Shown: positions 9,423 through 14,333 of the stretch, in pieces
Layout of the letters: every line of letters starts with the position of its first letter
Numbering within the stretch: the stretch's first letter is position 1
DNA from: Pseudomonadota bacterium
GTDB taxonomy: Bacteria; Bdellovibrionota_B; Oligoflexia; Oligoflexales; CAIYRB01
Assembly: GCA_031416315.1 (NCBI GenBank)
Contig: JANOTL010000191.1
Span: 1 to 22,843 of the forward strand
Length of the DNA: 22,843 nucleotides
Direction of reading: 5' to 3'
Program-made: the position numbers and the translations under genes
Notes under the pieces: generated by a model
Told to the model about the DNA's origin: nothing
Databases searched by the model: none
Seen by the model: the letters and a program-made list of their open reading frames with translations, nothing else

Positions 9423-11408
9423 TCATGGAGCGTGAGCGCGTGCCTCCACGCCGGGGTCGGTGAGGGCATGGAGGAAGGCCAAGATCGCGTCGATTTCGTG
9501 ACCGGAGAGGTTGGTGATTGGCGCATCGTTGGCGGCCGCGATGGCCGCGCGGACGTTGCCGTCCTCCCAGGCGGTCCAAAGGGCCGGATCCTTGATCGCG
9601 AAGGGGAAGACGGCCTCGTGGGGCTTCCAGTCGCCGAGCGAGGCGACGGGATTCGAGTAGTGCGCGACGAAGCGCTTCAGCGAGTTGTAGGCGCCGTTGT
9701 GGCCCCAGGGGCCGCTCAGAGTGACGTTGCGCAGGGATGGGGTGCGGAAGGTGTAGCGATCCTCGTCGCGCTTGGAGAAGCGGGCGTAGCCGTAATCTTC
9801 TTTGCCCGAGGGGCCGTCGCCCATGCCGGGGCCGAACTGCGGCATCGCGATGCCGTGATGCTCGTTGTCGGTCTGGAAGACGCCCGTATGGCAGGAGGCG
9901 CACTGGGCCTTGCCGTAGAAATAGAGGGCGCCCTGCTTTTGGATCGGGGTCATCGCGTTCTTGTCGCCGCCGAGCCAGCGGTCGAACGGCGCGGCGTCGG
10001 CACGCCAAGCCCAAGTTTCATACGCGGCGATCGCGTTGCCGATCTGTGCGATCGTGAACTGGTTCAGCGCTTGCGCCGGGTAGGCGTGGCCGATCAAGGC
10101 CTGGTAGCGCGGCTCGGCGACCACGCGTTGCACGACCGAGTCCCAGACCTGCGTGAAGTCGACCGAGCTTTGCTCGTCGCCGCTGAGACAGCCGAGCATT
10201 TCATCGCGGCTGGCAAGCGGGAAAAGCGCCTGCGCGGCGAGCGCGCTGCGCAGCCCGTAGGGGGTTTTATCGCCCGCGGGGGTGATGATGCCGGTCGGAT
10301 AGTAGGAGACGCGGCTGTCCCAGAACATCTTGGTAAAGGACTTCGCGCCGCGGTTGTAGAGCGAAGGGGAATGGCGCGGCAAGACGTCGGTCGCCAAGAA
10401 TTGGCTCGTTTTCGAGCGCGCGGCGAGCGTCGGGCCCAGGGCGACGCGGTTCGAGGTGCCGAACTCGGGGACGTGGCAGGTGGCGCAGGACGTGTCGTTT
10501 TTGGTCGAGAGCAGCTTGTCGTAAAAGAGCTCACGGCCGAGACGGATCTCGCCTGCGCTCCCCATCTCGTAGTCGGCGTCCTGCGTGGCGACGACGCCGT
10601 AGTTGCCGATGGCGGCGCGGAGGTTTTGATCGAGCAGGTACGGGTTCGGATGGCCGCCCCCTGGATACGGAGTCGGCTGCGGCGTCGGCGTCGGGTAAGG
10701 TCCCGGGGTCGGTTGCGGTGCCGGCGTCGGGTAGGGCCCGGGCGTCGGCTGCGGCGCGGGCGTCGGATAGGGGCCCGGCGTCGGATAGGGGCCCGGCGTC
10801 GGTTGCGGCGCCGGATAGGGCGACGGGGTCGGCTGGGGACCCGGCGTCGGATAAGGCTTCGGACCCGGCGCGGGATATTGCGGCGCCGGCATAGGTTTGC
10901 GGTAGTAGTAATAACGGTACGCGCCGCGCTTGCAGGAGTGCAGCCGCGTGTACGTATACGTCTTGCCGGTGGCGGTATATGCCTTGGGCTGGTAGTTGGC
11001 GTAGCTCGTCTCTTGTGTATAAGGCTGCCACGACGAAGTCGACGTATCCCGGTCGAGCTCCTCGCCCTGGGCGAGCGCGTCCTTCACCGGAGCCTTCCGG
11101 CCGACGAGGTAGGCGGCTTCGACTTCCGCGTCGAGCTGGGCCGTCTCGTGCATCGCGATGACCGCGAGATCAGCTTCCGTGGTGCGCATCTTGGCGGTGG
11201 CGGGCAGGTCTTGACCCTCGCCGTCGACCTCGACGCGGATGATCGTGCCGGCCTCGAGAGACTCGGTCTCCGCTTCGGGCGCGGGCTGCGCGACGTTGGG
11301 CGCGTCAGGCGCGGGCTTGGAGTCTTTACCGTTGCCCGCGTCGCAGGCGGCGATCGCCGCCGTGAGCGCGAGACAGACGAGACGACTTTGGGCTTTGCTC
11401 AGAAGCAT
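9423..11408 (-). CDS. Lipoprotein di-haem cytochrome c peroxidase/MauG-family enzyme with Tyr-rich N-terminal module and Pro-rich linker
   Basis: Lipobox IAAC22; 'LGRELFYDKLLS', CATCH (308-312), 'MFWDSR', CASCH (503-507), 'FRTPSLRNV..SGPWGHNG', 'LAFLHALTD'. Confidence 0.93.
   Translation of the reverse strand: MLLSKAQSRLVCLALTAAIAACDAGNGKDSKPAPDAPNVAQPAPEAETESLEAGTIIRVEVDGEGQDLPATAKMRTTEADLAVIAMHETAQLDAEVEAAYLVGRKAPVKDALAQGEELDRDTSTSSWQPYTQETSYANYQPKAYTATGKTYTYTRLHSCKRGAYRYYYYRKPMPAPQYPAPGPKPYPTPGPQPTPSPYPAPQPTPGPYPTPGPYPTPAPQPTPGPYPTPAPQPTPGPYPTPTPQPTPYPGGGHPNPYLLDQNLRAAIGNYGVVATQDADYEMGSAGEIRLGRELFYDKLLSTKNDTSCATCHVPEFGTSNRVALGPTLAARSKTSQFLATDVLPRHSPSLYNRGAKSFTKMFWDSRVSYYPTGIITPAGDKTPYGLRSALAAQALFPLASRDEMLGCLSGDEQSSVDFTQVWDSVVQRVVAEPRYQALIGHAYPAQALNQFTIAQIGNAIAAYETWAWRADAAPFDRWLGGDKNAMTPIQKQGALYFYGKAQCASCHTGVFQTDNEHHGIAMPQFGPGMGDGPSGKEDYGYARFSKRDEDRYTFRTPSLRNVTLSGPWGHNGAYNSLKRFVAHYSNPVASLGDWKPHEAVFPFAIKDPALWTAWEDGNVRAAIAAANDAPITNLSGHEIDAILAFLHALTDPGVEARAHAP
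10662..10895 (-). repeat. Pro-X tandem repeat (unit ~PQPTPGPYPTPA) inside the di-haem enzyme
   Basis: Residues 172-249; degenerate 18/36-nt units, including an exact tandem GGCGTCGGATAGGGGCCC at 10759-10776 and 10777-10794. Confidence 0.95.
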
Positions 11409-11507: not shown

Positions 11508-12287
11508 TCAAGGCACTTGCCGCGAGCGGTGCCCGGCGACGATCCAGTGGCCGAGCCAGTCGAGCCCGAGGCTTAAGGCGAGCGACTCGATCTCACGCGT
11601 AAGGCTTCGGTCCGCGGCCGAGGCCCTCAAGGCGCCCGAGGGGTGGTTGTGGGCCAGGAGAATCGCCGACGGCCGTGTCGCGAGGATGCGAGCGGCGAGG
11701 GTTTGGCGATCGCAGCTCACGCCGTAGCGATGGCCGTGGCCGACGACGACGAGCGCGCCGACCGCGCCGTGGCGAGAGACCGGGACGAAGCCAAGCCACT
11801 CCTTGGCAGCGGCGCGATGCTTCGGCGAGATCTGGGCGAGGGCTGCCGCGGCGACCTCGTCAGCAGCGCACGGCGGACCCGCGTGCATGGCGACGAGCTC
11901 CTCGCGGAAGGCTGCGTACCTTCGGGCCAGCTCGAACGCGGCCGCGAGCCGGGCCAGGGCTCCGGCGTCGAGCAGAGGCAGCCCGGCGCGCGTCGGTCGC
12001 AGCGCCGTGTCGCGAGCCTTACGGGACGGCCGCCGAGGGGCGCCTAAGGGCGGTCCCAAATCGAGAACGCCGTCGGCGTCCTCGAGCGCATGGAAAAGCG
12101 CGGCCTCGAAGCTCTCGGTCCGCCGCGACGGCCCGGCGCCCAATCTTTTCCCCAGCCGGCGCGCCGCGGCCATCGCCGCGGCGGGAGAGTCCTGCGCGAG
12201 GAGCGCCGCAACCAGCTCGGTCGCGCCAAGTCCGCGCCCGCCGGTGGCGAGGATGCGGGCGCGCGGGTTGTCGGAGGCGAGCGTCAT
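11508..12287 (-). CDS. radC: RadC/UPF0758-like JAB-domain protein (divergent)
   Basis: N-terminal 'PRARIL..G...L...ELVAALL', 'AAFELARR', JAB motif E...'AHNHPSG..RASAADRSLT'. Confidence 0.8.
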   Translation of the reverse strand: MTLASDNPRARILATGGRGLGATELVAALLAQDSPAAAMAAARRLGKRLGAGPSRRTESFEAALFHALEDADGVLDLGPPLGAPRRPSRKARDTALRPTRAGLPLLDAGALARLAAAFELARRYAAFREELVAMHAGPPCAADEVAAAALAQISPKHRAAAKEWLGFVPVSRHGAVGALVVVGHGHRYGVSCDRQTLAARILATRPSAILLAHNHPSGALRASAADRSLTREIESLALSLGLDWLGHWIVAGHRSRQVP

Positions 12288-12645: not shown

Positions 12646-12812
12646 GGCGGTTCCCCCTAAGTGCCCGACCGATGCGAGCGCTTCGTCGCGTTTTGCCGAA
12701 AACTTGAGATTTTTTGACGCAAGGCCTCAATACGACTGAAGATGACCGTTCTTACGTCAAGTTGCCGACGGTTTGGTCCGAGGTTTTCCCCAGTGACCAA
12801 CGGAGGCTCCCC

Positions 12813-14333
12813 ATGAAAATGATCGCGCTCGTGTCCCTGATCCTTGCGGCCAGCAGCTGCGGCAAAGCCGAAGACGACGAGGTCGACGAGGCGGAGGAGT
12901 CTTCGAGCACGGTCACCGGCGTGGGCGGCGCCGCGGGAACCGAGGGCGTCGGCACGCTGACGATCGGCTCGGGCCTGGCCTCGATTCCAGATCCGGCCTC
13001 GGTGTTCAAGGCTTCGCTCGCGAGCCTAAGTCTGGCCGCCGTCGGTCAGCCCCCGCTCTTCGCCACGCTCGGCGAGGACGTCGCGGGCAATCTCTCCGGC
13101 GACGTCACCGAGCTGATCGCAGCCATCGTCTCCGCGCAAGCCGCGCACGACTGGACAGGCGTCCGCGCCTTGACCGAGGACTTCCGGAACGCCCAGGCGA
13201 AATGTCGGGTGATGGAAGATACCGCGCGCCAGGTCCAGGACCTGGCCGACATGACCAACTCGACGTGCAAGATGAAGAAAGTCGGCGCCAAGGGCGCGGA
13301 CGCGCTGCGTGCCGTCACCGGCACCTTGCCCGCCGACGGCGACTTCTTCGTCAACACGGGTGACGCCGACGTGCGCCGCGTGATCAAGGTCGGCGCGCCG
13401 GATCTCGACAAGATCGCCTTCACGATCTCGGGCAAGACGGCGGTCCCGTCCGGCTACCGTATCAAAATGACCTTCTGTACCGCGGCCGGCAAGGCCAAAG
13501 GCGCCGAGCTGGTGGCAGTCGACGGCGCTCTCGGTACCGTGACCCACGAGACCGTGCACCACGACGAGCGCGTCGAGGTCCGTCAGGGCGTGAACGTCAA
13601 CGCCGAATTCCGGCGCCATGCGTTGATCAAGGGCGTCCTAAAGACCGAGGCCTTAGGCCTTGCCTTCGACGGCGCCAAAGCCCGCAGCGTTGCGATCGAG
13701 AATCTGGCCGCCTTCGCGAGCGACGTGCAATCCTCCGGCAACTCCTTCAACGCGCAGATCGAGATCGCCGGCGGCGAGCTCGTCACCAAGTTCGTCGGCG
13801 TCGACTCCTTCGTCGGCCCCGACGGCGTGAAGCAGGGCGGCAAGCGCCGCGGCATCGCGTCCACCGCGTTCACCGGCACGAGCGCGGCGACGGTCGCGAT
13901 CGCGGAAGGCGCCGGCAAGCAGATCGGCGAGTTCTACCGCGGCGAGCAACCGGCCATCCCGGCGACGAAGATCGTCGCTTTCAGCTACGACGAGACGAAG
14001 ACGCCGAAATACACCACCGTCACGTCGGGCAAGTACTTCGACACCGTCACGGCGATGGATTTCGCCTTAGACCCTCTGCTCAAGCTGGAAGCGCCGGCCG
14101 AGCCGGTTTTGACGCTGGCTGCCGACGCCGACTGCGACACGACGACGGCCGAGGTCGTCGCCCGCATGAACGGGAGTCCGGCCCTGCAGGCGTCGATGGC
14201 GGAATGCGACTCGGTGAAAGATCGCTTCAAAGGCGGCGACACGCTCTGCCAGGCCCTGGGGCAGCAAGAGCGTTACGTCTTCGAGGCGCTGCGCGCCGAC
14301 AAGGTCGCGAACCCGGGCACTGCGCCGCAGTAA
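12813..14333 (+). CDS. Hypothetical lipoprotein
   Basis: GGAGG RBS at 12802-12806; signal peptide 'MKMIALVSLILAASSC'; acidic tether; 506 aa; no recognisable catalytic motif. Confidence 0.8.
   Translation: MKMIALVSLILAASSCGKAEDDEVDEAEESSSTVTGVGGAAGTEGVGTLTIGSGLASIPDPASVFKASLASLSLAAVGQPPLFATLGEDVAGNLSGDVTELIAAIVSAQAAHDWTGVRALTEDFRNAQAKCRVMEDTARQVQDLADMTNSTCKMKKVGAKGADALRAVTGTLPADGDFFVNTGDADVRRVIKVGAPDLDKIAFTISGKTAVPSGYRIKMTFCTAAGKAKGAELVAVDGALGTVTHETVHHDERVEVRQGVNVNAEFRRHALIKGVLKTEALGLAFDGAKARSVAIENLAAFASDVQSSGNSFNAQIEIAGGELVTKFVGVDSFVGPDGVKQGGKRRGIASTAFTGTSAATVAIAEGAGKQIGEFYRGEQPAIPATKIVAFSYDETKTPKYTTVTSGKYFDTVTAMDFALDPLLKLEAPAEPVLTLAADADCDTTTAEVVARMNGSPALQASMAECDSVKDRFKGGDTLCQALGQQERYVFEALRADKVANPGTAPQ

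Follow-up and report, generated by a model that had tools for sequence, protein, structure and literature searches.

A recurrent fusion of a tyrosine-rich secreted module to a MauG-type di-haem enzyme suggests a candidate substrate family

On which proteins do di-haem enzymes that resemble MauG act? To our knowledge, most MauG-type enzymes have no known substrate, and the question is raised by a gene on contig JANOTL010000191.1 (assembly GCA_031416315.1) of an Oligoflexales bacterium, which was analysed as a stretch of 22,843 nucleotides referred to here as the window. Positions 9423..11408 of the minus strand form a single open frame of 661 codons for a lipoprotein of 661 aa, in which a Tyr-rich module is joined to a His/Tyr di-haem enzyme of the bacterial cytochrome c peroxidase (bCcP)/MauG superfamily; from the N- to the C-terminus the layout is lipobox, Tyr-rich module, Pro-rich linker and di-haem domain. 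An earlier note, made from the sequence alone, proposed a self-contained system in which the enzyme modifies its own N-terminal residues. We find instead that the fusion is real, recurrent and undescribed, and that it brings to light a family of secreted proteins that has no name. The module is a copy from this free-standing family, whose members are about twice as rich in Tyr, are encoded elsewhere in the same genome and are therefore better substrate candidates in trans. With somewhat less than even confidence, we suggest that the fused copy is a docking tag of the same family, by which the enzyme oxidises, and probably cross-links, the free Tyr-rich proteins.

The single polypeptide with lipobox and di-haem domain was borne out by the intact frame, Cys22, CxxCH motifs at residues 308 and 503 and a match to Pfam CCP_MauG. 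The start codon is backed by the near-identical N-termini of two homologues (P0003, P0004), and the signal peptide (residues 1–22; 11343..11408, minus strand, as for all features of the gene) carries a lipobox whose Cys22 is nearly invariant in 22 aligned homologues (alignment A1). Searching with the catalytic domain yielded 2813 proteins out of 7997 candidates that were scored; the best 120 were analysed together with this protein and P0124 (122 in total). The module is carried by 21 of these 122, which answers whether the fusion recurs, and all 21 lie within one branch of the enzyme tree that has 23 members (Shimodaira–Hasegawa-like approximate likelihood ratio test, SH-aLRT, 91; quick tree, midpoint root) and also contains P0024, in which the module is reduced, and P0025, a fragment that is cut at the N-terminus. 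One fusion is found at L025 of an Oligoflexales bacterium. A close enzyme homologue (E ≤ 1e-30) is present in 15 of 95 genomes of the order, this genome counted, and in 8 of 11 relatives of its own family.

The catalytic domain (residues 255–655; 9444..10646) matches CCP_MauG (PF03150) with E 5.9e-33 and 115.1 bits against a cut-off of 25.6, and its AlphaFold model has the two-domain bCcP/MauG fold, with Foldseek matches to MbnH, bCcPs and MauG (E 5.8e-13 to 6e1c, TM-score 0.71 by target length). The haem-binding motifs are CxxCH 308–312 (10473..10487) and CxxCH 503–507 (9888..9902). Tyr584 (9657..9659), the predicted sixth ligand of haem 2, aligns with Tyr294 of MauG and with the Tyr of MbnH, and occupies the position of the Met that serves as sixth ligand in canonical bCcPs; Trp363 (10320..10322), in the alignment to the bCcP 1nml, falls on the Trp of its FWD motif, which is the inter-haem Trp of bCcP/MauG. 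Gln393, Pro397 and Glu403, invariant in all 21 fused enzymes, can be equated with Gln103, Pro107 and Glu113 of MauG by motif spacing; a short-query PDB search for the same alignment gave only spurious tetratricopeptide repeat matches and was set aside. Ser565 and Pro567 align with Thr275 and Pro277 of the MauG calcium site, for which the position of the third MauG residue, Asn66, is His346 here and Asn in 19 of the 21 fused homologues. His346 (window 10371–10373, minus strand) is in itself unusual, Asn being found there in 118 of the 121 other compared proteins.

The five-residue set Trp363/Gln393/Pro397/Glu403/Tyr584 is complete in 21/21 fused enzymes and in three of the other 101, namely P0024 and P0025, both within the fused branch, and the basal, module-less P0030. 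At position 584, 81 of these 101 have His and 11 have Tyr; at position 363, 65 have His and 22 have Trp. Tyr496, Trp594 and Trp614 are enriched within the fused branch. The catalytic domain thus belongs to the bCcP/MauG superfamily and, as judged from alignment, has a His/Tyr residue set, in line with the MauG-like enzyme first proposed.

N-terminal to it, residues 42–176 are predicted as one domain (AlphaFold, 62 sequences), with a predicted local distance difference test (pLDDT) score of 86, a predicted template modelling (pTM) score of 0.81 and the lowest confidence at an acidic loop, so that the separate acidic domain and Tyr segment of the earlier note are not recovered. Within the domain, a conserved first half common to the free family (residues 44–111; 11076..11279) is predicted to comprise a β-hairpin and helices. 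It is followed by the acidic loop with a conserved L-D-x-x-x-S motif (residues 112–126; 11031..11075; pLDDT 53 for 112–121), a candidate cleavage site whose Ser123 is present in 138 of the 143 free copies and in 20 of the 21 fused ones, and by the Tyr-rich core (residues 127–172; 10893..11030), with Trp127, 11 Tyr and a predicted C-terminal β-hairpin. The roughly 20 Tyr counted earlier in residues 130–257 are exactly 20; however, Trp127 is the single Trp in residues 23–257, and the segment is therefore Tyr-rich rather than Trp/Tyr-rich. Only 7 of 83,342 six-frame open reading frames (ORFs) of the genome have at least 10 Tyr in 45 residues, and six of the seven belong to the module family; the Tyr density of the module is far above the genome background. 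The key aromatics are conserved among fused copies (Trp127 in 21/21, Tyr139 and Tyr153 in 20/21, Tyr169 in 18/21), and fused modules offer 5–12 Tyr and one Trp. No Pfam, NCBIfam or PDB sequence family matched the module above cut-off, although a remote family is still possible; Foldseek returned no fold match at E 0.001 in the PDB and viral sets (best VIA Z 3.4, rmsd (root-mean-square deviation) 3.0, 60 aligned), and a fold search of the ESM Atlas with the module gave no usable match.

The module also exists alone, as a multi-copy family of secreted proteins of 136–299 aa with extreme Tyr content. A module profile search located five free copies in this genome (contigs C192, C200, C19, C173 and C194), of which that on C200 is cut by the contig end, with a matching repeat fragment at the start of contig C181; the last 47 residues of one own-genome copy include 24 Tyr and 5 Trp. 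Free copies are laid out as a signal peptide (with a lipobox pattern in 89 of 144), a conserved first half of ~70 aa, an acidic loop with conserved Leu-Asp and Ser, a Trp, and a variable Tyr/Gly/Asn-rich tail that ends in a conserved Tyr hairpin pattern. When identical alignment columns are compared, the median number of core Tyr is 19 in free and 9 in fused copies. The Tyr:Phe counts are 2746:265 in free cores, 177:31 in fused cores and 351:376 in catalytic domains; Tyr is thus preferred to Phe in both kinds of core, and more so in the free ones, although hydrogen bonding or solubility could also explain this preference. A subtype with an Arg/Trp-rich repeated motif directly after the acidic loop (L103:2417-3037, L155:1515-2270) is conserved between two bacterial families.

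The free family was found in 42 of 95 genomes of the order, including all 11 relatives of the genome's own family. Across the phylum, 38 of 131 genomes have it at E 1e-4, and a single match, weak and partial, lies beyond the order, to which the family is almost confined. Among 1.84 billion representatives, 448 clusters (50% identity) match the module profile, and the best 150 of these consist of 146 free proteins of 136–299 aa and four instances of this fusion. The 30 longest new clusters among the best 150 were scanned with Pfam for fusion partners, and within the best 150 of 448 the MauG-type enzyme is the only partner seen; the pattern expected of a generic display domain, found on many unrelated enzymes, was not observed there. 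A search aimed at long module fusions missed the known ones too, returning nothing, and is therefore uninformative; another search yielded only 10 proteins. The free family, with a confident model that lacks a fold match, is unnamed and belongs to a little-studied bacterial order.

Genes for secreted proteases are linked to the free copies. Clustering over 66 loci placed a trypsin-fold protease at nine and a subtilase at five. The former, in which catalytic His, Asp and Ser motifs are present, resembles the Bacillus glutamyl endopeptidase 1p3c (E 2.5e-6), and this weak likeness leads us to infer an acid (glutamyl) specificity. When the search was begun from the protease, a module gene lay within ~1.5 kb at 16 of 30 loci (taken from 34 matches), including 13 of the 17 best-scoring, with 8 of the 16 linked loci already known; both glutamyl-endopeptidase-like copies in this genome adjoin a module gene. 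The linkage spans several families of the order, though these are kin and not independent. Secreted proteases of this kind with C-terminal extensions (L104:2053-3381, L105:3285-4769, L212-L241) are tightly linked to the non-lipoprotein subtype. The S8 protease was rejected as a general partner: a module gene stands at only 4 of 30 S8 loci, and the S8 copy of this genome has none. Nor does the tree resolve a derivation of the fused copies from the S8-linked subtype. The subtilase itself is a divergent, single-copy lipoprotein with a long insertion (G000:C188:30181-31617, L182-L211), present in 39 of 95 genomes of the order and, in five genomes, directly downstream of a Tyr-rich gene. In two genomes, a protease and Tyr-rich gene pair is followed by a transglutaminase-elicitor-family gene (L177:2123-3199, L178:2167-2709; PF16683, E 9.6e-35), possibly a second cross-linking enzyme beside the family. 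Of what marks precursors of ribosomally synthesized and post-translationally modified peptides, the free family shows a leader-like half, a variable core and a linked protease, but no modifying enzyme is seen among the scanned neighbours of the free copies.

From the fusion we infer a Rosetta-stone link between the enzyme and the free Tyr-rich proteins, both kinds of copy sharing by sequence the signal/lipobox, the conserved first half, the acidic loop and the Tyr-rich core. Since the first half and the core are predicted to fold as one domain, the first half would serve to hold a core with as much as 50% Tyr in solution while it is exported. As suggested by the gene linkage, a secreted protease could then cut the acidic loop, after which the core could join others; in the fused enzyme, this cut would remove the lipid anchor but leave the enzyme's own core attached. 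After periplasmic attachment of haem, H2O2 would drive the enzyme to the bis-Fe(IV) state, from which oxidising holes would reach surface Tyr/Trp, by analogy with MauG, MbnH and BthA, and the flexible linker of variable length may let the anchored enzyme reach neighbouring cores. Tyrosines of the free copies would thereby be oxidised with H2O2, most simply to dityrosine, after or without cleavage of the acidic loop, and the enzyme's own core may also become cross-linked in. The chemistry has precedent in the cited parts of the literature: MauG, MbnH and BthA form bis-Fe(IV), with His-Tyr ligation separating them from canonical bCcPs (PMC11892367, PMC6405878), and MauG oxidises its partner over ~40 Å by hole hopping while MbnH makes kynurenine in MbnP (PMC11951088). 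In the relevant section of PMC6405878, a Tyr-to-His exchange at the ligand of BthA or MauG abolishes the bis-Fe(IV) signal, although the BthA variant still reduces H2O2 with an external donor; retention of the Tyr therefore points to use as an oxidant rather than as a scavenger. In its fullest form, the proposal is of an undescribed protein-materials system, in which secreted precursors of a new fold chaperone cores that are up to half Tyr, a dedicated, acid-specific protease releases them to self-assemble, and a MauG-type bis-Fe(IV) enzyme, fused to a copy of the building block, co-assembles with them and cures the material by Tyr cross-linking; this we put forward as a possibility about which we are doubtful.

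Several observations weigh against trans oxidation of the free proteins. The known MauG-type products described in the cited part of PMC11951088 are Trp modifications, not dityrosine. No Trp stands at the equivalent of MauG Trp199, where residue 501 is Ala, Gly or Val. P0030 and P0051, basal relatives without the module, already have the Tyr ligand, which rules out its gain together with the fusion; the Tyr predates the fusion and is inherited, not independent, evidence. In a second family of the order, f13, 20 of 22 genomes have free copies, but only 1 of the 22 has a close enzyme homologue, on which no module was detected; in the genome's own family, 3 of the 11 relatives have free copies and no enzyme match (assemblies 77%, 83% and 95% complete). 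As most genomes with the free family are thus without the enzyme, the latter can only be an accessory, one that belongs to a single bacterial family and on which the Tyr-rich system does not depend. Around 61 free-copy loci, 168 ORFs were collected, of which 24 were dropped (mostly near-duplicates that came from close relatives), and the Pfam scan of the 144 remaining neighbours contained no haem peroxidase, tyrosinase, multicopper oxidase, cytochrome P450 or radical S-adenosylmethionine (SAM) family. Conversely, no module gene was found at loci of unfused enzyme homologues; a check for unfused homologues as genomic neighbours accordingly came out negative, enzyme and module genes not being found together in the loci examined. 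Finally, protease-linked free copies, mostly without a lipobox, group in a separate branch (SH-aLRT 99) that does not contain the fused copies, and cleavage of the fused protein is therefore an extrapolation.

The alternative that survives best is that the module is a display tag only, placing a peroxide-removing or unrelated redox enzyme on a Tyr-rich surface layer or particle, with the family not being its substrate. Such a role would suit a free family that is widespread without the enzyme and a fused core poorer in Tyr than the free cores, and BthA, whose ligand set is the same, uses an external donor to reduce H2O2 and is not known to act on a protein, according to the cited part of PMC6405878. 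The enzyme subfamily also gains other N-terminal additions: P0036 has a longer, β-rich domain, and P0050, P0070, P0074, P0095, P0099 and P0100 share another short domain with a conserved Trp-Ser-Ser-Asp-Leu-type motif. Yet the module is seen on no other enzyme in the best 150 of 448 clusters, and all fused enzymes keep the Tyr and inter-haem Trp, whereas 57 of 101 close relatives have His at both positions. A canonical-type paralogue is already present in the genome, and MauG-type enzymes are generally poor dye-linked peroxidases according to the relevant part of PMC11892367. We regard a pure display role as unlikely.

The proposal of the earlier note, narrowed to the enzyme docking on its own module and oxidising Trp127 or conserved Tyr to yield a cofactor, a metal site or a released peptide, appears improbable. 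MauG and MbnH do modify a specific Trp of one partner (cited part of PMC11951088), and Trp127 is invariant, and Tyr139, Tyr153 and Tyr169 nearly so, in the fused copies; the same residues are, however, conserved in free copies without an enzyme and are thus explained by the fold, and Phe is tolerated at several positions. Predicted docking of module on enzyme lends weak support to this reading as well as to trans oxidation, with 0.55 against 0.00 for the best control (runs of 0.55, 0.75 and 0.00). Of 157 solved pairs, 116 attain the docking mark, as do 2 of 215 mismatched ones; at values of at most 0.60, only 18 of the 157 and both mismatches do so, with runs agreeing in at least 12% of contacts and a partner pLDDT of at least 70; a pass at this level is more often wrong than right unless the interaction was likely beforehand. 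The full-length model has a pTM of only 0.59, and a one-off self-modification costs a whole enzyme per substrate.

Self-modification also sits poorly with the linker, a Pro/Thr/Tyr repeat segment (residues 173–252; 10653..10892; tandem DNA repeats of 18, 36 and 48 nt) that is predicted to be disordered (pLDDT <50 for 176–251) and whose length varies from 13 to 80 aa across 21 homologues. A Pro/Tyr linker is indeed present, with 39 Pro and 8 Tyr in 80 residues, but it is not a conserved feature among these 21: Tyr number 8 and 7 in this protein and its closest homologue (P0002, P0003) and 0–4 in the other 19. The linker is long and Tyr-rich only in this pair, and the analogy with plant extensins therefore fails; an extensin-like linker as cross-linking substrate was rejected, the Pro/Tyr repeats not being conserved, and matches to AaBglC and other Pro/Thr-rich proteins were low-complexity artefacts.

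It is very improbable that the module is a hole sink, a reductant that is sacrificed to quench the high-valent haems so that the enzyme is protected: the bis-Fe(IV) state of MauG decays by damaging nearby Met (cited part of PMC6405878) and 5–12 Tyr and a Trp are held on a flexible tether, but the retention of a whole folded domain with its acidic loop is left unexplained and module-less Tyr-type relatives exist. Equally remote is the idea that the free family comprises protease inhibitors or protease-released (for example, antimicrobial) peptides, with the fusion a lineage-specific accident supplying a signal peptide and spacer, which would fit the linkage to two unrelated serine-protease types (9/66 and 5/66 loci), the reduced module of P0024 and the existence of module-less lipoprotein relatives, but not the intact module in 21 fused proteins that, over their full length, are as little as 39% identical to this one, a retention that implies selection.

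In the window, the fusion gene is flanked upstream by a RadC-like gene and downstream by genes for a 2Fe-2S ferredoxin and a SanA-like protein, and in seven loci of relatives by other housekeeping genes, as judged from translations; there is thus no conserved operon. A Pfam scan of nine window ORFs contained no mau or mbnP-like partner, as had been noted, and a promoter scan found nothing on the strand of the fusion gene. The RadC-like JAB-domain gene (window 11508-12287, minus strand) is divergent, with an unusual N-terminal half, and is separated from the fusion gene by an AT-rich gap. A 539-codon ORF (window 12714-14333, plus strand) encodes a probable lipoprotein without a Pfam or NCBIfam match.

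The genome has six CCP_MauG genes; of the four others that were matched by sequence pattern, one has Met and three have Tyr at the ligand position, the Met-ligand (canonical-type) paralogue lying on contig C94. A 1414-codon frame (G000:C94:101093-105334) has a Tyr-type di-haem domain at residues ~860–1100 between long flanks. Cytochrome c assembly genes are present (three matches). Beyond the fused branch, a sister subfamily of ~450 aa (P0026-P0122; L026-L100; Methylobacter, Nitrosococcus, Verrucomicrobia and others) is widespread without conserved neighbours, and no gene family recurs at more than 7 of 78 unfused enzyme loci. In 57 of 101 sequences of this subfamily, His stands in place of the inter-haem Trp and of the axial Tyr alike; the subfamily is an uncharacterised, possibly bis-His, di-haem class.

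We know of no described protein with this architecture, and we found no paper on it or on the free family in the open-access literature. The gene fusion names a candidate substrate family for a MauG-type enzyme, and both partners are small enough to express. Should Tyr cross-linking prove true, bis-Fe(IV) chemistry would be widened from Trp cofactors to structural polymers. No earlier MauG-type enzyme would have been shown to use Tyr or a structural polymer as its substrate, and bacterial dityrosine formation would gain a candidate enzyme with a name. Even without cross-linking, the free family is an unnamed feature of a little-studied order, with 448 clusters, extreme Tyr content and a linked protease.

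By cut-offs and partners, the protein is not MauG, MbnH or the His-Xaa-Ser protein. With MauG (tryptophan tryptophylquinone biosynthesis; TIGR03791; PDB 3l4m) it shares the fold (Foldseek E 4e-11), two CxxCH motifs, Tyr at Tyr294, Ser/Pro at Thr275/Pro277, the inter-haem Trp and the Gln/Pro/Glu motif, but it scores 100.2 bits against a cut-off of 443.85, has ~21% identity and no Trp199 equivalent, is a lipoprotein with a fused module, and has no mau genes in the window; a search for the methylamine dehydrogenase small subunit gave no match in the genome, and none in control genomes. MbnH (TIGR04039; PDB 6e1c) is the best solved match by profile (E 3e-41) and fold (E 5.8e-13), with Tyr at the ligand position. 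However, the score is 114.5 bits against a cut-off of 362.85, and MbnH has an adjacent Trp-rich partner where a Tyr-rich module is fused here; MbnP was not found in this genome (93% complete) by a search that found the control in 1 of 14. The His-Xaa-Ser system MauG-like protein (TIGR03981) is the best-scoring named model (254.4 bits, E 1.8e-75; 221–285 bits for fused and unfused relatives), yet below its cut-off of 340, and its paired radical SAM model, TIGR03978, reaches 73 bits against a cut-off of 370, on another contig. BthA of Burkholderia (PDB 6nx0) is likewise a His/Tyr di-haem enzyme without mau genes or an established substrate; in contrast to the protein here, which keeps the Trp and has no conserved neighbour, BthA is described in the relevant part of PMC6405878 as being without the inter-haem Trp and calcium site and beside a phosphatase. 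The spore coat of Bacillus subtilis (CotG, CotC, CotU) also contains Tyr-rich secreted or surface proteins with dityrosine links, ascribed in the cited part of PMC7944565 to a peroxidase called unknown; this is an analogy without visible sequence relation, and the candidate enzyme here is, by contrast, of the c-type, matured in the periplasm and fused to a family member. By these analogies, the protein may work like MauG or MbnH on a protein partner, or in the manner of peroxidase-cured Tyr-rich coats.

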